From NCBI RefSeq assembly GCF_011045215.1, contig NZ_CP049201.1: DNA of 64,000 bases. The stretch is one strand, 5' to 3'. The DNA comes from Escherichia coli. Its GTDB lineage: Bacteria > Pseudomonadota > Gammaproteobacteria > Enterobacterales > Enterobacteriaceae. A model generated the notes under the pieces. The model made no database searches. It was not told the DNA's origin and saw nothing but the letters and a program-made list of their open reading frames with translations. Positions 39,466-64,000 of this stretch are shown in pieces (position 1 is the first letter of the stretch; every line of letters begins with the position of its first letter). The position numbers were made by a program, and so were the translations under genes.

Positions 39466-39837
39466 AGCTCCTCCTTAATGACAGGGTTGCGAAGCCCTGA
39501 TTCTCTTCAGGGTGAATATTAAAGATAACACAAACATCGCGTAACGATTTGATAACAACCCAAATTGATAAAAGAGGAGAAACCTTGTGGCAAAGCAAAT
39601 GACAACCCCGCCGCAGCGGGGTCAAGGATCAGTGAGTAATGATCCAGAGGAGTTCGGCCCAGAAGAGCATCGACAGAGAAAACGCGCCCATCCAGGACCA
39701 ATATTTCATATTTGTGTTGATCATAGGCTACACCCTTAACGGTTATTACTTTGTGTTGAGATAACTCAACCTGTTATTGCTGCGGTGTATTAAAAGCCCT
39801 GTAATTCATTAAAAATGGGTAATAAGAATGATGATAA

Positions 39838-52214: not shown

Positions 52215-52259
52215 ATGAAAGCAATTTTCGTACTGAAAGCTTGGTGGCGCACTTCCTGA
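52215..52259 (+). CDS. trpL: trp operon leader peptide (14 aa, tandem Trp codons)
   Basis: ATG AAA GCA ATT TTC GTA CTG AAA GCT TGG TGG CGC ACT TCC TGA = [14 protein letters not shown]. Confidence 0.95.
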   Translation: [14 protein letters not shown]

Positions 52260-52299
52260 AACGGGCAGTGTATTCACCATGCGTAAAGCAATCAGATAC

Positions 52300-52329
52300 C
52301 CAGCCCGCCTAATGAGCGGGCTTTTTTTT
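52300..52329 (+). terminator. trp attenuator (3:4 terminator hairpin)
   Basis: CAGCCCGCC-TAAT-GAGCGGGC followed by eight T residues. Confidence 0.95.
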
Positions 52330-58915: not shown

Positions 58916-59261
58916 ACTTTCTTTAACGAAGCCGGAAAAATCCTAAATTCATTTTATATTTATCTTTTTACCGTTTCGCTTACCCCTGTCGAACGTCAAC
59001 TTACGTCATTTTTCCGCCCAACAGTAATATAATCAAACAAATTAATCCCGCAACATAACACCAGTAAAATCAATAATTTTCTCTAAGTCACTTATTCCTC
59101 AGGCAATTGTTAATATATCAAGAACGTTCCTCATAATATATTTTCCCACTTTCTTCTCGTTACGCTTAATTTGACTAATTCTCATTAGCGACTAATTTTA
59201 ATGAGTGTCGACACACAACACTCATATTAATGAAACAATGCAACGCAACGGGAGAAATAAC

Positions 59262-59441
59262 ATGGCCGAACATCGTGGTGGTTCAGGAAATTTCGCCGAA
59301 GACCGTGAGAAGGCATCCGACGCAGGCCGTAAAGGCGGTCAGCATAGCGGCGGTAATTTTAAAAATGATCCGCAACGCGCATCTGAAGCGGGTAAAAAAG
59401 GCGGTCAACAAAACGGTGGTAATAAATCAGGTAAATCCTGA
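59262..59441 (+). CDS. yciG: Small Gly-rich stress protein (KGG repeat)
   Basis: ORF trimmed to MAEHRGGSGNFAED start (59 aa), GGAG RBS 7 nt upstream. Confidence 0.88.
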   Translation: MAEHRGGSGNFAEDREKASDAGRKGGQHSGGNFKNDPQRASEAGKKGGQQNGGNKSGKS

Positions 59442-59526
59442 TTCACCGTTAATTATTAATATCAGCTGATAAAGATAATTGCATCTGCGGGCCGTATGGC
59501 TCGCAGTGATTCCACTGGAGAAAAAT

Positions 59527-60027
59527 ATGAATATGAAGACCATTGAAGATGTATTTATTCACCTGCTTTCAGATACCTACAGCGCAGAAAAACAATTAAC
59601 CCGGGCACTGGCAAAACTCGCAAGAGCAACATCAAACGAAAAATTAAGTCAGGCTTTTCATGCGCACCTCGAGGAAACACATGGACAGATTGAACGTATT
59701 GATCAAGTTGTGGAATCAGAATCGAATCTGAAAATTAAGCGCATGAAATGTGTGGCAATGGAAGGTCTTATTGAAGAAGCTAATGAGGTCATCGAAAGTA
59801 CCGAGAAAAACGAAGTGCGTGATGCCGCACTGATTGCCGCAGCACAGAAAGTCGAGCACTATGAGATTGCCAGTTACGGGACATTAGCGACGCTGGCTGA
59901 ACAATTAGGTTACCGTAAAGCAGCGAAGCTTCTGAAAGAGACCCTGGAAGAAGAAAAGGCCACCGACATCAAACTGACTGATCTGGCCCTTAATAACGTA
60001 AATAAGAAAGCCGAAAATAAAGCCTGA
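59527..60027 (+). CDS. yciF: DUF892 ferritin-like stress protein
   Basis: ORF trimmed to MNMKTIEDVFIHLL start (166 aa). Confidence 0.92.
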   Translation: MNMKTIEDVFIHLLSDTYSAEKQLTRALAKLARATSNEKLSQAFHAHLEETHGQIERIDQVVESESNLKIKRMKCVAMEGLIEEANEVIESTEKNEVRDAALIAAAQKVEHYEIASYGTLATLAEQLGYRKAAKLLKETLEEEKATDIKLTDLALNNVNKKAENKA

Positions 60028-60072
60028 AATATGAACTTTAACTTTTAGTCATTTTATAAAGAGGACATTTTC

Positions 60073-60579
60073 ATGAATCGTATTGAACATTATCATGACT
60101 GGTTACGTGACGCCCATGCAATGGAAAAGCAAGCCGAATCTATGCTTGAATCCATGGCCAGCCGTATAGATAATTATCCTGAACTACGTGCTCGTATTGA
60201 ACAACATCTTAGTGAAACCAAAAACCAGATTGTTCAACTGGAAACTATTCTTGATCGTAATGACATTTCACGTTCAGTCATTAAAGATTCCATGAGTAAA
60301 ATGGCTGCGCTTGGGCAGTCAATCGGTGGTATATTCCCTTCTGATGAAATAGTCAAAGGCTCTATTAGCGGATATGTCTTCGAGCAATTTGAAATCGCCT
60401 GTTACACCTCTCTATTAGCAGCAGCAAAAAATGCCGGTGATACAGCCTCAATTCCGATCATCGAAGCGATTTTAAATGAGGAAAAGCAAATGGCCGACTG
60501 GCTGATTGAGCATATTCCGCAAACAACTGAGAAATTTTTAATTCGATCTGAAACTGATGGCGTAGAAGCGAAGAAATAA
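60073..60579 (+). CDS. yciE: DUF892 ferritin-like stress protein
   Basis: 168-aa ORF MNRIEHYHDWLRDAHAMEKQAE. Confidence 0.92.
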   Translation: MNRIEHYHDWLRDAHAMEKQAESMLESMASRIDNYPELRARIEQHLSETKNQIVQLETILDRNDISRSVIKDSMSKMAALGQSIGGIFPSDEIVKGSISGYVFEQFEIACYTSLLAAAKNAGDTASIPIIEAILNEEKQMADWLIEHIPQTTEKFLIRSETDGVEAKK

Positions 60580-60603
60580 TACCCTTTATGCCATGTCCTT
60601 ATT

Positions 60604-60630
60604 GACCCCGTATATTACGGGGTCGTTTTT
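60604..60630 (+). terminator. Rho-independent terminator after yciE
   Basis: GACCCCG-TATATTA-CGGGGTC followed by GTTTTT. Confidence 0.85.
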
Positions 60631-60638
60631 GTGCGGAA

Positions 60639-60761
60639 TTAAAAACGATATCCTGCTGAGAACATAAACACCCACGGATCGAGGCGTACGCTATCGTGTT
60701 GCTGTGCACCGCCCAGCTTATAATTGGCGGTGGTATCGATATCCATGTACCAGACTGACAT
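60639..60761 (-). pseudogene. ompW: 3'-terminal remnant of the outer membrane protein W gene (last 40 codons)
   Basis: Minus-strand translation MSVWYMDIDTTANYKLGGAQQHDSVRLDPWVFMFSAGYRF-stop matches the OmpW C-terminus; an in-frame stop lies directly upstream (60765-60767), so the N-terminal about 170 codons are absent. Confidence 0.85.
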
Positions 60762-60948
60762 GTTTTAAAAAATGAAATAAGACATTGTATCTGAAAGAAA
60801 AAACAGGATTTTGAGGCGCTTTTTTATACCGTTTCTCCGTGTTTTTAACTGCCTGATTTTATTGAAATCTTTTTTAGTTTTGCAGAAAGGATTTTTTGCT
60901 CGATCGTTTTAATTTTATACATTCCTGATAACGGAAATTTTTTTGCCG

Positions 60949-60978
60949 TTGACAGTTTTTGTTCTCCGGGGCTATATT
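60949..60978 (+). promoter_or_regulatory. Predicted strong sigma-70 promoter inside the prophage terminus
   Basis: TTGACA (60949-60954), 18-nt spacer, TATATT (60973-60978). Confidence 0.55.
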
Positions 60979-60984
60979 CCTCAC

Positions 60985-61064
60985 ACAACCGCAAAATCGG
61001 TTGTCGGGATTGGCGTCCCGGATGTTTACGGAGCGATATAAGACGCGCCCGCGTCTTTTTTCAT
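60985..61064 (+). ncRNA. Candidate prophage-encoded small RNA (about 80 nt: two stem-loops, single-stranded AU-rich tract, intrinsic terminator)
   Basis: Stem-loops ACAACCG-CAAAAT-CGGTTGT (60985-61004) and CGGGA-TTGGCG-TCCCG (61005-61020); terminator AAGACGC-GCCC-GCGTCTT plus TTTTC (61040-61064); no ORF with an RBS. Confidence 0.4.
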
Positions 61065-61224
61065 ATCGTTTGCACAGTCACATTCGCGATTTATGGCGGG
61101 CTGTGTGGGGGAGCCGAAAGGCTCGCCGGTTTCCGTACCCGGTTACGCCAACCCTGCACAGTTCGCCACCAGTTCGATTGGCGTCGTCGGTGGCGATAAT
61201 TTCCAAATGTACGGAGTTATCGTT

Positions 61225-61788
61225 ATGACCACTCAGATTTCTGTCGAAACTCTTTCCCCGATTACACACAATCAAATTCCCGTTATCACTACCGAGTTGC
61301 TGGCGCAGCTTTATGGCACGGACTCAGATAACATCAAAAAGAATTATTCGCGCAACGCAGATCGCTTTTGTGAAGGTAAGCACTTTTACAAGGTGATTGG
61401 CGATGAACTAAAGAATTTGCGGGTGACTTTAAGTCACTCACAAAATCCCATCTCTCCCAAAACTCGCTCCCTCATCCTCTGGACAGAACGCGGCGCAGCC
61501 CGCCATGCCAAAATGCTCGAAACCGATCAGGCGTGGGAAGTGTTCGAAAAACTGGAAGACTGTTATTTCAGCCATAAACAACCACCAGCAACACAAAACT
61601 CCCCCACCCCAAATGATGGATGCGCATTACTGATCCACTTCGATAAACACGGGCAGGTCGAGTTCACGGAAAAAGTCCCCGCCGATGCGATGGTATGCAC
61701 TCTGGAACGGTTTAAATTTTATCTGGAGCAACATGGGTGGATCGTTGCCCGTAAAGAACAATTGGTAGAAAGGTTGATGCGGTTTTAA
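61225..61788 (+). CDS. Prophage accessory (moron) protein with phage antirepressor-like N-terminal domain (ORF6N/Rha/KilA-N type, unverified)
   Basis: 187-aa ORF MTTQISVETLSPITHNQIPVITTELLAQLYGTDSDNIKKNYSRNADRFCEGKHFYKV; GGAG RBS 8 nt upstream; the ORF-track start at 61093 rejected (no RBS, GC-rich structured region). Confidence 0.6.
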   Translation: MTTQISVETLSPITHNQIPVITTELLAQLYGTDSDNIKKNYSRNADRFCEGKHFYKVIGDELKNLRVTLSHSQNPISPKTRSLILWTERGAARHAKMLETDQAWEVFEKLEDCYFSHKQPPATQNSPTPNDGCALLIHFDKHGQVEFTEKVPADAMVCTLERFKFYLEQHGWIVARKEQLVERLMRF

Positions 61789-61796
61789 TGAATGCA

Positions 61797-61826
61797 AAAC
61801 CCCGGATGATCACCGGGGTTGATTTT
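61797..61826. terminator. Bidirectional terminator between the moron gene and tfa
   Basis: AACCCCGG-ATGATCA-CCGGGGTT followed by GATTTT. Confidence 0.75.
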
Positions 61827-62403
61827 ATCGAGGATGATTGCCGCTAATCGTCATCTCTCTGATTGAGAGTAAATCATCCAAGTTATTCAGCTCTTGCTTC
61901 ATCTCCCGCTGGCGGCGATAAATCTCGTCATTGCGATCGACCTGCGCCTGAACCATTGCAGTAAGCAGCTCATCCAGTTGTTGCATTGACAACTTTACCT
62001 GCTGATTTTCCGCATCGCGCCATACCATGGTTTTCCGTGCCGTGACTGATTTTGCTGATATCACCACCGGGTAAAGACGGGCCATCGAATCCGGTCCCCC
62101 GTTCCAGCTATGACCGTTCCATTCAAAAATGAATGGCTGCGCCTCCTGCTCTGTACGCCATGCTTCAATTTCCCGGCGTTTGGCTGCTTTTGCTGCTTCC
62201 AGCATCTCTGGCGTGACGGTGAACGGCGTTATTTCTCCCCACTTGCCGCTTTGCAGTTCCTGCCAGACTCGCTGCCCTGTCTCTGCTGTATCCGTGGCAG
62301 TTGCCGTATACGGAACCGGTTCATCCATGCCATCAAACAACACCCCGCAGTCAATCGCGCCATTTTCAAGATAACGCGCATTTTCGATGCGTTTTATTTC
62401 CAT
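61825..62403 (-). CDS. Putative tail fibre assembly/chaperone protein
   Basis: 192-aa ORF (ATG at 62403, AGGTG RBS) starting 8 nt after the stf stop; MEIKRIENARYLENGAIDCGVLFDG...; not the lambda Tfa family as far as I can judge. Confidence 0.5.
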   Translation of the reverse strand: MEIKRIENARYLENGAIDCGVLFDGMDEPVPYTATATDTAETGQRVWQELQSGKWGEITPFTVTPEMLEAAKAAKRREIEAWRTEQEAQPFIFEWNGHSWNGGPDSMARLYPVVISAKSVTARKTMVWRDAENQQVKLSMQQLDELLTAMVQAQVDRNDEIYRRQREMKQELNNLDDLLSIREMTISGNHPR

Positions 62404-62410
62404 AAAACAC

Positions 62411-63835
62411 CTACGCAATACGTATGAACAAACCAATCATGACACTGGCTGACCCGGCAGACCCGAGTTCATCGCCTGACAGTGCACGATATGACCCCGG
62501 CATACCACCACCAGAACCCCGCACATATACGGAAACGCTGCCGTTATATCCAACCCCGCTACCGGTCGTGCCGTAACACATAAATTCAACCGCACTCAGG
62601 CGTGACCCCGGATAACTGTAACCGCGCTTTATCCGGCGGTCGGTGTCTGCGTCTCCCTTACCGTTATAAGCCGCCAGTACAAGACTGCCTGCACCGTACC
62701 AGCCGTCCGTGGTACCGGGAGCAATACCGGACAGAAGAGAGATAATGTCCTGTGAGGTAATCTTCAGATTTTCCCAGCCAGTCAGATAACCATTACCTGT
62801 TGTCCAGTAGCGGCTGTAATAAACATCGCCATTGATACCGTAGAAAATAATGGCCTTTGGTGTATATCGCGGTTCCGGTGGATTATTGCGTGCCTCAACC
62901 CACCGGATGCTGACCACCCCGTTAAACAACACACCTCCGGATATGATTTTACTGCCACCCTCAACAAAATATTCACCCGGCGTCGCATTCCTTACCCATG
63001 CCAGAAAATCATCCTCTGTGTTAAAACGGATGCGTTCTGCGGGCAGAAAAATATGCCCAAAACCAAATGCGCCAGGTGTCGCCAGACGGCCTTCAGTCCG
63101 GTCGCGAATGTCGCTCTGTGGCGTCATTGTGGCTGCGCTTTTCAGTCCAAGATTATCACGGGATTCCTGCTGAGCCTCTTCACCTTCATCAGCCAGCTCT
63201 GATAAACGATTCGCCGTTTTCAGTGTCGCAGATAACGCGGTGTCAATATCCTCCCTGACATGCTCTGCATCAGATGCAGCCTGTTTAGCAGCTTCAGCGT
63301 CCTTTTTTACCTCCTCGGCGGCATTCTCAACCTGTGAGACCAGATTTTCGGCCTGTTGTTTACCCTCCGCAACCGCGTCGGCGTTCTGCTGAACACCTTC
63401 CGCCAGTTTTTTTACCTCTTCTTTTTCCCGAGCGGCAGCGTCTGCATGTTGCCCTGCCTGTCGTTCGCTTTCTGTTGCAGTTTCCGCGCTCTGCTGCGCC
63501 TGCGCCACCAGTTCTTCGAACCGCTTAACAACATCCGGCTTCAGGTCGCCTTCATCGAGGGCAGTCAGAAAGTCGTTCAGCGTGCCAGGCTTTGAGTCGT
63601 CGTAAACCGAAATATCACCGACACAGTATTCCCTTTCAATACACGACCGAAGATAAACGTCATATTTTCCGGTCTGAGCTTCAAAAGCATATTCTCCTGC
63701 CGGACCTGTCACCACTGTCGCCACCGTTCTCATGACCACTGCGGATGTATTCTGTCTGGCTTTCAGAATAATATGGTATCCGGACATGGGGAGTCCCGCG
63801 CCATCCGTCAGCACACCCGAAATTAATACAGACAT
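62411..63835 (-). CDS. Side tail fibre protein (lambda Stf-like N-terminus, Ala-rich coiled-coil middle, Gly-rich C-terminal domain)
   Basis: 474-aa ORF MSVLISGVLTDGAGLPMSGYHIILKARQNTSAVVMRTV...VYDDSKPGTLNDFL aligns by eye with lambda Stf MAVKISGVLKDGTGKPVQNCTIQLKARRNSTTVVVNTV...VYEDSQPGTLNDFL. Confidence 0.85.
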   Translation of the reverse strand: MSVLISGVLTDGAGLPMSGYHIILKARQNTSAVVMRTVATVVTGPAGEYAFEAQTGKYDVYLRSCIEREYCVGDISVYDDSKPGTLNDFLTALDEGDLKPDVVKRFEELVAQAQQSAETATESERQAGQHADAAAREKEEVKKLAEGVQQNADAVAEGKQQAENLVSQVENAAEEVKKDAEAAKQAASDAEHVREDIDTALSATLKTANRLSELADEGEEAQQESRDNLGLKSAATMTPQSDIRDRTEGRLATPGAFGFGHIFLPAERIRFNTEDDFLAWVRNATPGEYFVEGGSKIISGGVLFNGVVSIRWVEARNNPPEPRYTPKAIIFYGINGDVYYSRYWTTGNGYLTGWENLKITSQDIISLLSGIAPGTTDGWYGAGSLVLAAYNGKGDADTDRRIKRGYSYPGSRLSAVEFMCYGTTGSGVGYNGSVSVYVRGSGGGMPGSYRALSGDELGSAGSASVMIGLFIRIA

Positions 63836-64000
63836 TTTTATTTCCTGATTCAGAAAACATTAACCAAAATAATTGACGCCTTTTTTCTTGCCACTGGCTT
63901 TCCCCTTTGCAGAAATATCCGTGGCCAGCGACAGATTCAGCGAAAATCCCTGCACCGGTGACAACGAAAATTCCACTGACTCTGCCTGCCAGTTATGGTC

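Follow-up and report, generated by a model that had tools for sequence, protein, structure and literature searches.

A C4-family antisense RNA with target sites preceding a prophage anti-repressor gene of Escherichia coli

Described systems of the C4 and IsrK type

The antisense RNA C4 of the immI locus of phages P1 and P7 (Citron & Schuster 1990, cited through PMC8198154, PMC5320573 and PMC12197685) is excised from a leader and acts by antisense pairing on a ribosome-binding site, according to PMC5320573 and PMC8198154. Its processing by RNase P at a GG, yielding an RNA of 77 +/- 1 nt, is summarised in PMC5320573 and PMC11143913. The C4 family as a whole, including how it folds, what it targets and that it is associated with anti-repressors, has already been described by Weinberg et al. 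2010 (PMC2864571), in the P1 literature (via PMC8198154, PMC5320573 and PMC12197685) and in the Gifsy-1 study (PMC4825925). In the GenBank record of P1 the elements follow each other in the order P2c4 and P1c4 promoters, a1, b1, C4, a2, b2, icd and ant1/ant2. There, a1 and a2 both read TTGACAG, with a2 lying 3 nt past C4, b1 reads GTTAGTGC, and b2 reads GTTAGTGA and lies over the icd Shine-Dalgarno sequence; the P1 C4 RNA itself is 77 nt long, begins at the GG after UUAU and ends in ..GCCACC.

A second well-studied locus is isrK-orf45(STnc1160)-anrP of the Salmonella prophage Gifsy-1 (Hershko-Shalev et al. 2016, PMC4825925). When IsrK was provided in trans, translation of anrP rose 139-fold, and compensatory mutants of G28/G31 with C162/C159 demonstrated the underlying pairing experimentally (PMC4825925). 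The orf45 product was detected by SPA tagging, and either mutation of the first AUG or an early stop codon in orf45 lowered the IsrK-dependent activation of anrP, even though the authors found the nucleotide sequence of orf45 to be conserved and its peptide not (PMC4825925). Downstream of IsrK, a stable processed species named STnc1160 accumulates in Salmonella, and induction of Gifsy-1 by AnrP and IsrK has been documented (PMC4825925).

Throughout this study we use the P1 terms, in which b' denotes the loop of hairpin 2 and a' the single-stranded junction on the 3' side of that hairpin; the two labels are swapped between the record of Bacteriophage APSE-7 and that of P1. The APSE-7 record explicitly annotates an isrK and C4 pair, which is also found in PMC7313666.

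Structure and setting of the C4 locus

The DNA analysed here (the window) is a 64-kb stretch of E. coli sequence, in which positions 61065-61224 had been singled out as a GC-rich, strongly structured leader of a presumed moron gene starting at 61225. Both properties were borne out. In 150-nt windows the GC content is 0.57 across 61000-61224, against only 0.29-0.35 upstream (60775-60999) and 0.43-0.47 downstream (61150-61449), that is, 0.29-0.47 nearby. For the plus strand of 61065-61224 the minimum free energy (MFE) is -66.3 kcal/mol, which was not equalled by any of 200 dinucleotide shuffles (z = -3.62); folding of the minus strand of the same segment was not beyond the expectation from dinucleotide shuffles (z = -1.88). 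All features described below lie on the plus strand unless stated otherwise.

Scanning Rfam had been proposed by the original prediction as a check on the leader. An Rfam 15 scan of 59000-64000 returned three matches, all on the plus strand and all above their gathering scores (RF01695, RF01394 and RF03163, the C4, isrK and c4-a1b1 families), and a separate gathering-threshold scan over the whole 64-kb window gave the same three. The C4 antisense RNA model (RF01695) matches 61089-61173 with 77.6 bits (gathering score 45, E = 1.4e-14) over its full length, model positions 1-87 of 87, which establishes family membership. The finding consists of this C4-family RNA and the 50 nt that lie 3' of C4. 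Judged by its sequence, 61065-61224 appears to be an ordinary member of the known phage C4 antisense RNA family together with its target sites, and we regard its identification as a C4-family RNA plus targets as highly probable.

The predicted fold comprises three helices. A basal stem joins 61095-61111 to 61151-61167 in both the MFE structure and the Rfam model, and includes the first of the pairings originally proposed, that of GGCGGGCUGUG (61095-61105) with CACAGUUCGCC (61157-61167). The second, a GAGCC-GAAA-GGCUC hairpin, was likewise found in the MFE structure, at 61111-61124, where it forms the GAAA hairpin of C4. It is followed by hairpin 2 (61125-61143), whose loop UUUCCGUAC (61130-61138) is b', the hypervariable specificity loop, and by the single-stranded junction ACGCCAA (61145-61151), which is a'. 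The third proposed pairing, of CGCCAACC with GGUGGCG, turned out to be mis-registered: the partner of GGUGGCG is CGCCACC. The segment CGCCAAC (61146-61152) is instead the single-stranded a' segment, with exact complements UUGGCG at 61178-61183 and 61010-61015, and GGUGGCG(A) at 61189-61196 finds its exact complement in (U)CGCCACC at 61163-61170.

Homologues were collected by a pattern search of IMG/VR, which gave at least 120 viral-contig loci comprising 30 distinct C4 sequences among the matches listed. Analysis of these 30 distinct homologues with RNAalifold, a comparison that had also been suggested at the outset, recovered the three-helix fold, with compensatory double changes in 13 of 24 pairs. 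In the alignment 95.0% of cells were paired, as compared to 79.7% in shuffles, and 96 cells carried double changes, as compared to 24.5; none of 500 shuffles reached either value. Sliding the 3' partners of the C4 helices lowered the paired cells to 35-49%. Hairpin 2 was fixed by the search pattern and so carries no covariation information. The covariation among homologues supports the predicted C4 fold, and the covarying fold is thus established in this analysis.

The 5' edge of the RNA is compatible with RNase P processing, with U(-1)/G(+1) at 61094/61095, and G61095 pairs with C61167, which is followed by A-C-C-A at 61168-61171. By analogy with P1, the mature form would probably span about 61095 to 61170/61171 (76-77 nt); an excised C4 of 61095-61170 is predicted to have 76 nt. 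We separately considered a tRNA remnant at the attachment site and rejected it: ARAGORN found no tRNA or tmRNA in 60500-62000, and the C4 region is therefore not a tRNA remnant.

A further helix competes with this fold. The sequence GGUGGCGA (61189-61196) can pair along its whole length with UCGCCACC (61163-61170), to which it is exactly complementary and which comprises the ACC tail together with the 3' side of the C4 basal stem. The resulting alternative hairpin, in which 61163-61170 (TCGCCACC) pairs with 61189-61196 (GGTGGCGA), carries site a2 in its loop. Across 17 distinct sequences including Gifsy-1 and P1 this helix has 9 pairs with 94.8% of cells paired and compensatory changes in 5 pairs, values reached by 0 of 500 shuffles, and slid controls gave 33-65% paired. 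The alternative helix and the C4 basal stem are mutually exclusive, having the 3' strand 61163-61170 in common, and since the two cannot coexist the unprocessed read-through transcript is predicted to have two alternative conformers.

Upstream of C4 lies a sigma-70 promoter (TTGACA, 18-nt spacer, TATATT; 60949-60978) that agrees with the consensus at 11 of 12 positions. Both of its hexamers are conserved in an alignment with Gifsy-1 and P1, and in position it is the equivalent of the isrK promoter and of P1c4 of P1. Inspection by eye revealed neither a LexA box nor a P1 C1-type operator at this promoter. The promoter is followed by an IsrK-family sRNA at 60985-61061 (RF01394, 75.2 bits, gathering score 50), a 5' leader that contains a1 and b1 and overlaps a c4-a1b1 match at 60972-61024 (RF03163, 48.6 bits, gathering score 46.7). 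The stem of an intrinsic terminator, followed by a T-run, occupies 61040-61057; the terminator that the original prediction had assigned to a candidate sRNA is thus that of IsrK. The locus shares with the Gifsy-1 one the RF01394 match, the terminator, the read-through region and then an AnrP-type gene. An alternative suggestion, that the region is part of a longer non-coding RNA, agrees with these data, as the region and the upstream sRNA belong to one longer transcript.

The layout could also be read as that of a metabolite- or protein-sensing cis leader, either a riboswitch or a classical transcription attenuator, as originally proposed: the 5' UTR is GC-rich and strongly folded with mutually exclusive helices, and a terminator lies upstream in the same transcript. 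However, no riboswitch or leader family was detected at E <= 1 in the Rfam scan of 59000-64000, and C4, isrK and c4-a1b1 account for all of the structure there. Nor does any terminator lie between 61062 and the ATG at 61225, and the conserved single-stranded segments are explained by co-varying complementary sites within the same locus (see below). We therefore regard such a sensing leader as very improbable. Of the original view of the region, the structured RNA stands, as does its probable role in regulating the downstream gene, but the element is neither attenuator- nor riboswitch-like, nor is it an unfamiliar one.

The gene downstream (61225-61788) encodes a 187-aa protein with an ORF6N domain (PF10543, 74 bits). 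Its product matches PHROG 2379 (phrog_2379, "anti-repressor") with 298 bits over the full length and is 54% identical to STM2616 (AnrP) of Gifsy-1, with which it shares its first 28 residues and its length of 187 aa. Pfam, PHROGs and homology establish that the gene is an anti-repressor gene, and the label of moron gene has to be dropped. An intrinsic terminator at 61798-61820 closes the module.

The genes upstream of the module are trpBA and yciG-yciF-yciE, followed by a minus-strand remnant of the ompW 3' end (approximately 60639-60764), which is annotated as such in the closest E. coli genome, that of strain C5 (99.6% identity). The minus strand downstream carries genes for tail-fibre assembly and for a lambdoid side tail fibre; in strain JNEC-KY180, tfa, stf, lom and J come after the same module. 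Because of the ompW remnant on one side and the tail-fibre genes on the other, the module is placed at that end of an ompW-integrated lambdoid prophage where the tail-fibre genes lie, in an orientation opposite to the late genes. A query over 60900-61800, from the promoter through the RNAs and the anti-repressor gene, found similar DNA in 1333 of 5426 complete E. coli genomes, with at least 80% of the query covered in 144 of them, and also matched 294 phage records, mostly of Stx-converting phages.

Target sites and comparison with P1, Gifsy-1 and P4

Exact complements of a' and b', 6-7 nt in length, occur at four sites distributed on both sides of C4. Upstream, a1 (TTGGCGT, 61010-61016) lies in the loop of IsrK hairpin 2 and is complementary to a', and b1 (TACGGA, 61027-61032) is complementary to the UCCGUA of b'. 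Downstream, a second TTGGCGT forms a2 (61178-61184), 7 nt past the C4 3' end and in the loop of the alternative hairpin, and b2 (GTACGGA, 61209-61215) is complementary to the b' pairing core UCCGUAC (61132-61138). In the window b2 is thus 7 nt long, b1 6 nt, and a1 and a2 7 nt each. Site b2 overlaps the Shine-Dalgarno sequence GGAG (61213-61216), which is separated by an 8-nt spacer from the ATG at 61225; b2 therefore lies over the ribosome-binding site of the anti-repressor gene, as is the case in the C4 family, and this occlusion geometry is established by the positions themselves. The 64-kb window contains two copies and no more of the combination TTGGCGT-N(10-40)-TACGGA, one on each side of C4; 0.06 occurrences are expected, and none of 100 shuffles contained two.

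The sites were also compared among homologues. In the 120 viral contigs among the matches listed, the hairpin-2 loop is hypervariable after a constant UUUCC, with at least 21 variants of b'. Nearly all of the loci in the matches listed have an exact complement of b' about 35 nt past C4 that ends in the GGA of the Shine-Dalgarno sequence, and a second copy of the complement is found upstream, inside IsrK. In these matches the longest run complementary to b' averages 7.1 nt for cognate pairs as compared to 4.1 nt for non-cognate ones, and over the 21 loop classes none of 10,000 permutations reached the observed sum, whether for the downstream or for the upstream site. Site a' also co-varies with a1/a2 among the matches listed, in the combinations ACGCCAA/TTGGCGT, TCGCCAA/TTGGCGA and CGGCCAA/TTGGCCG. 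These results establish the target sites and their co-variation. The b' loop of the window is 3 nt shorter than that of most relatives.

Duplex energies calculated for this single locus were only marginal relative to shuffled targets (49/1000 for b' with the leader, 164/1000 for a' with the leader and 6/1000 for a' with IsrK), which leaves positional conservation and co-variation as the basis of the case for antisense pairing. When C4 was cofolded with the leader or with IsrK, no contacts between loops of the two RNAs appeared, as is expected of an algorithm that cannot form loop-loop pseudoknots. For P1 and P7, a difference of 4 nt suffices for heteroimmunity (PMC5320573), and the variation of b' would appear to be the same principle extended to many specificities.

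The window resembles P1 immI in having the same three-helix fold (the full model, with the 77.6 bits given above) and in the order of its parts, with promoter, a1, b1, a terminator-like hairpin, C4, a2, b2 at the ribosome-binding site and an anti-repressor operon following each other in both. The distance from a2 to b2 is 31 nt in the window vs 29 nt in P1, that from b2 to the ATG is 9 nt vs 10 nt (the icd ATG in P1), and the 5' context UUAU/GG and the 3' end ..GCCACC are the same. The two loci differ in gene content: the anti-repressor gene of the window starts 9 nt past b2, with no intervening ORF and no icd, the small ORF that in P1 is translationally coupled to ant, and it is of the ORF6N/AnrP type rather than Ant1/2. 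The pairing segments of the window, a' ACGCCAA and b' UCCGUAC, differ from those of P1, CUGUCAA and UCACUAAC, and the specificity is therefore different. No C1-type operator was recognised in the window, and the module is carried by a lambdoid prophage integrated in ompW, whereas P1 is a plasmid prophage. The module would work like immI, yet it is not an immI operon in gene content.

In Gifsy-1 the order is isrK (79.3 bits), C4 (69 bits) and anrP, so that the two loci have IsrK at 75-79 bits and C4 at 69-78 bits. The sequences of a1 and a' are identical in the two, and a three-way alignment with P1 shows conserved promoter hexamers and a sites. When the numbering of the Gifsy-1 study is mapped onto its sequence, the first AUG of orf45 (A107) coincides with the AUG at the 5' edge of C4, and the compensatory mutant pairs G28-C162 and G31-C159 fall on a1:a' base pairs, both site sequences being identical in the window. 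STnc1160 appears to correspond in position to C4. The differences concern the b' loop and b1/b2, which read CCGGUGAU/AUCACCGG in Gifsy-1 and UCCGUAC/GUACGGA in the window, and the surroundings: the Gifsy-1 module lies between Q (antQ) and the lysis genes and is followed by isrJ, whereas that of the window lies beyond the tail-fibre assembly gene and adjoins the attachment site, with no isrJ found by the Rfam scan of 59000-64000. Furthermore, the 45-codon orf45 of Gifsy-1 terminates at a UGA overlapping the AUG of anrP (AUGA), whereas the frame in the window has no stop and is fused to the gene.

The CI RNA of satellite phage P4 causes premature transcription termination of replication genes. 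It resembles C4 in being a small RNA that is processed from a leader and pairs with sites both upstream and downstream of itself, but it belongs to a different RNA family and involves no occlusion of an anti-repressor ribosome-binding site. We found no sequence or Rfam relationship between the C4 of the window and P4 CI, which, with its seqA/seqC, is named as a structural analogue in PMC4825925.

The open frame from 61093 and the proposed mechanism

An ORF of 231 aa runs from an ATG at 61093 into the anti-repressor gene. Its first part (61093-61224) shares the reading frame of the anti-repressor, runs through C4 and the a2-b2 leader, and is the positional homologue of Gifsy-1 orf45, with the AUG at +109 from the IsrK start, as compared to +107 for orf45. 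In the RefSeq annotation of strain C5 the same bases are called as a partial 'hypothetical protein' CDS. Taken at face value, these two facts, an uninterrupted 231-aa ORF and an existing partial CDS, would be in keeping with an ordinary gene that starts at 61093 and whose Gly/Pro-rich N-terminal extension has no RNA function. However, the region gives a full-length Rfam match with compensatory base changes, third-position bias is absent, and the AnrP homologue starts at the methionine of MTTQISVETL.., from which the first 28 residues are identical. A GGAG precedes 61225 by 8 nt, and 61093 has no such sequence ahead of it. Ordinary coding is therefore extremely improbable as an explanation of the region.

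Conservation of the frame itself gives a mixed picture. Among the matches listed, the ATG frame is stop-free in 22 of 24 ATG-bearing variants, as compared to 12/24 and 5/24 for the other two frames (the variants being related rather than independent), and in most enteric variants it reads in frame into the downstream start codon. In the same matches, the frame overlapping C4 showed no codon periodicity, with 22, 24 and 21 variable columns at codon positions 1, 2 and 3, in a test for which the first codons of the downstream genes had been chosen as a positive control but, these genes being mosaic and non-homologous, provide no calibration. There, 19 distinct nucleotide sequences encode 18 distinct peptides. 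The AUG is absent from seven non-enteric variants (L009, L031, L034, L056, L083, L097 and L103), and the frame stops early in L029, L042, L088 and P1, in P1 after 14 codons. The missing periodicity, the 18 peptides from 19 sequences and the missing AUGs suggest that an orf45-like peptide as such is not under selection. RNase P prefers U(-1)/G(+1), and the conserved UUAU/GG context is equally well explained by this preference.

Translation from this AUG is central to the model put forward for Gifsy-1, in which the read-through mRNA acts as a switch in cis together with a translated upstream ORF, and no excised antisense RNA is needed. Applied to the window, ribosomes starting at AUG 61093 would open the C4/a2/b2 leader and deliver translation to the anti-repressor, producing an in-frame 231-aa isoform, and short IsrK acting in trans would flip the mRNA from an inactive to an active conformer. 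The Gifsy-1 study explains its locus in this manner, by cis structures and orf45 translation rather than by a processed antisense RNA, and supports it with the tagged and detected orf45 and with the AUG and stop mutations that reduce anrP activation (PMC4825925). The near-identical AUG positions, the preferentially open frame and its in-frame fusion in most enteric variants point in the same direction, as does the covarying alternative helix, whose formation at the expense of the C4 basal stem would leave the AUG free. On the other hand, there is no Shine-Dalgarno sequence ahead of 61093, the frame shows neither periodicity nor a constant peptide among the matches listed, and the AUG is missing in the seven variants, with early stops in P1 and three others. 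A stable processed STnc1160 exists in Salmonella (PMC4825925), and orf45 alone leaves unexplained why b' and b2 co-vary at the Shine-Dalgarno sequence of the anti-repressor. We consider the cis switch a possible account of the locus, although a rather unlikely one.

The original prediction had dismissed the Gly/Pro-rich extension as structured RNA mistaken for a coding sequence, and had set translation from 61093 against an RNA function. The first view is right in that the RNA is structured and the ORF lacks both a ribosome-binding site and codon constraint, but the coding reading cannot simply be set aside, as the homologous AUG is used in Gifsy-1 (PMC4825925). The use of that AUG has been demonstrated experimentally (PMC4825925), and translation coexists with RNA function rather than arguing against it.

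Our preferred reading, which we consider very likely, is that the C4-family RNA at 61089-61173 and two target sites in the anti-repressor 5' UTR together serve to block translation of the anti-repressor. Transcription would start at the strong promoter at 60949-60978, and most transcripts would end at the IsrK terminator (around 61062), giving a short IsrK that carries a1 and b1 as decoy sites. Read-through transcripts would carry C4, which, by analogy with P1, would be cut by RNase P between U61094 and G61095 and trimmed at its 3' end near 61170, the basal stem followed by A-C-C-A probably mimicking a tRNA acceptor stem. The a' segment (ACGCCAA) of the C4 RNA would then pair with a2, and b' (UCCGUAC) with b2, covering GGAG, so that the ORF6N anti-repressor would remain untranslated and the prophage repressed and immune. 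IsrK, or the a1/b1 part of the same transcript, would bind a'/b' in competition with a2/b2, and a surplus of IsrK should therefore relieve the block, as was measured in Gifsy-1 (PMC4825925). For the processing, the translational repression and the biological outcome we infer the course of events from P1 and Gifsy-1.

A broader reading would combine both models. According to it, the C4 region in this and most enteric variants has a triple role, as an excised antisense RNA, as an arm of a conformational switch between the C4 basal stem and the covarying hairpin (61163-61170 with 61189-61196) that displays a2, and as a translated stretch that gives the 231-aa extended isoform, with IsrK acting as an anti-antisense sponge. 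We regard this as improbable; if true, the P1 'c4' and the Gifsy-1 'IsrK/orf45' models would be two views of one three-RNA circuit, and the b' loop would give dozens of immunity specificities.

The family and its mechanism are already known, and the copy described here is an unremarkable member that scores above threshold, with nearly identical copies in numerous E. coli genomes, so that the current understanding of the C4 family is unchanged by these results. A few modest refinements may be under-appreciated: the explicit equivalence of P1 and Gifsy-1, with IsrK as the a1/b1 leader and orf45/STnc1160 as C4; how many specificity classes b' falls into; the alternative helix with its covariation; and the in-frame fusion seen here. 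For annotation, the region should be labelled as ncRNA (C4 and IsrK) rather than as a hypothetical protein or an N-terminal extension, as which RefSeq mislabels it in strain C5, and the presumed moron gene becomes an anti-repressor gene whose expression may trigger prophage induction. Since the module is widespread in E. coli genomes and Stx-converting phages, the class of the b' loop may predict cross-immunity, and may thus tell which prophages cross-regulate or cross-immunise each other.

IsrK and its setting in the prophage

The element lying just upstream of 61065-61224, which the original prediction had taken for a candidate sRNA, proved to be an IsrK-family sRNA (60972-61061, +; RF01394, 75.2 bits), overlapping a match to c4-a1b1 (RF03163). 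The two decoy sites for the C4 antisense RNA, a1 and b1, are located within this sRNA. Transcription of IsrK is driven by a promoter at 60949-60978 (+) that has 11 of 12 consensus positions, and the sRNA is closed by a terminator at 61040-61057 (+).

Further upstream, a 3' remnant of ompW (~60639-60764, −; ending ..AGYRF) comes immediately after yciE; a lambdoid prophage has inserted into ompW, and the remnant marks its junction. In strain JNEC-KY180 an integrase gene is found on the opposite side of the same ompW fragment, which may point to tandem prophages. Two additional Rfam matches in the window, to the enterobacterial sRNA STnc180 (39595-39797, −; 200 bits) and to the trp operon leader (52236-52329, +; 91.4 bits), are ordinary chromosomal features.

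An open frame through C4 and its annotation

A frame beginning at the AUG at the 5' edge of C4 (61093-61224, +) contains no stop and continues in phase into the start codon of the downstream gene, as it does in most enteric homologues among the viral loci listed (L003-L122). The equivalent frame in the Salmonella prophage Gifsy-1 terminates in an AUGA overlap. The frame is missing or broken in P1 and in non-enteric C4 loci, and it shows no codon periodicity.

In E. coli C5 (NZ_CP010122), where the ORF6N gene is frameshifted and most of the prophage is deleted, RefSeq labels the C4 RNA (L001:4194-4274, corresponding to 61093-61173) as a partial "hypothetical protein" pseudogene, and annotates neither C4 nor IsrK as an ncRNA. 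The labels a' and b' in the APSE-7 record (LR794149, L002:1538-1562) are reversed relative to the P1 record (NC_005856, L123:4256-4460), in which b' is the hairpin loop and its partner is b2 at the ribosome binding site.

Alternative pairing and loop specificity

A covarying helix joins the 3' side of the C4 basal stem (61163-61170, +) to the stretch directly following a2 (61189-61196, +). It is mutually exclusive with the C4 fold and exposes a2 in its loop; counterparts of this helix were found in both Gifsy-1 and P1. Separately, a local hairpin (GCGAUAAUUU.CC / GGAGUUAUCGU) is predicted at 61192-61224 (+), in which the Shine-Dalgarno sequence would be paired and part of b2 (AAAUGUAC) would be left unpaired in the loop.

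The loop of C4 hairpin 2 (61130-61138 in the window) occurs in at least 21 sequence variants among the 120 IMG/VR viral contigs listed, the 9-nt loop of the window being 3 nt shorter than most of them. Every variant among these contigs has complementary sites both at the ribosome binding site and in IsrK. Together, the loop variants and their matching sites look like many distinct immunity specificities.
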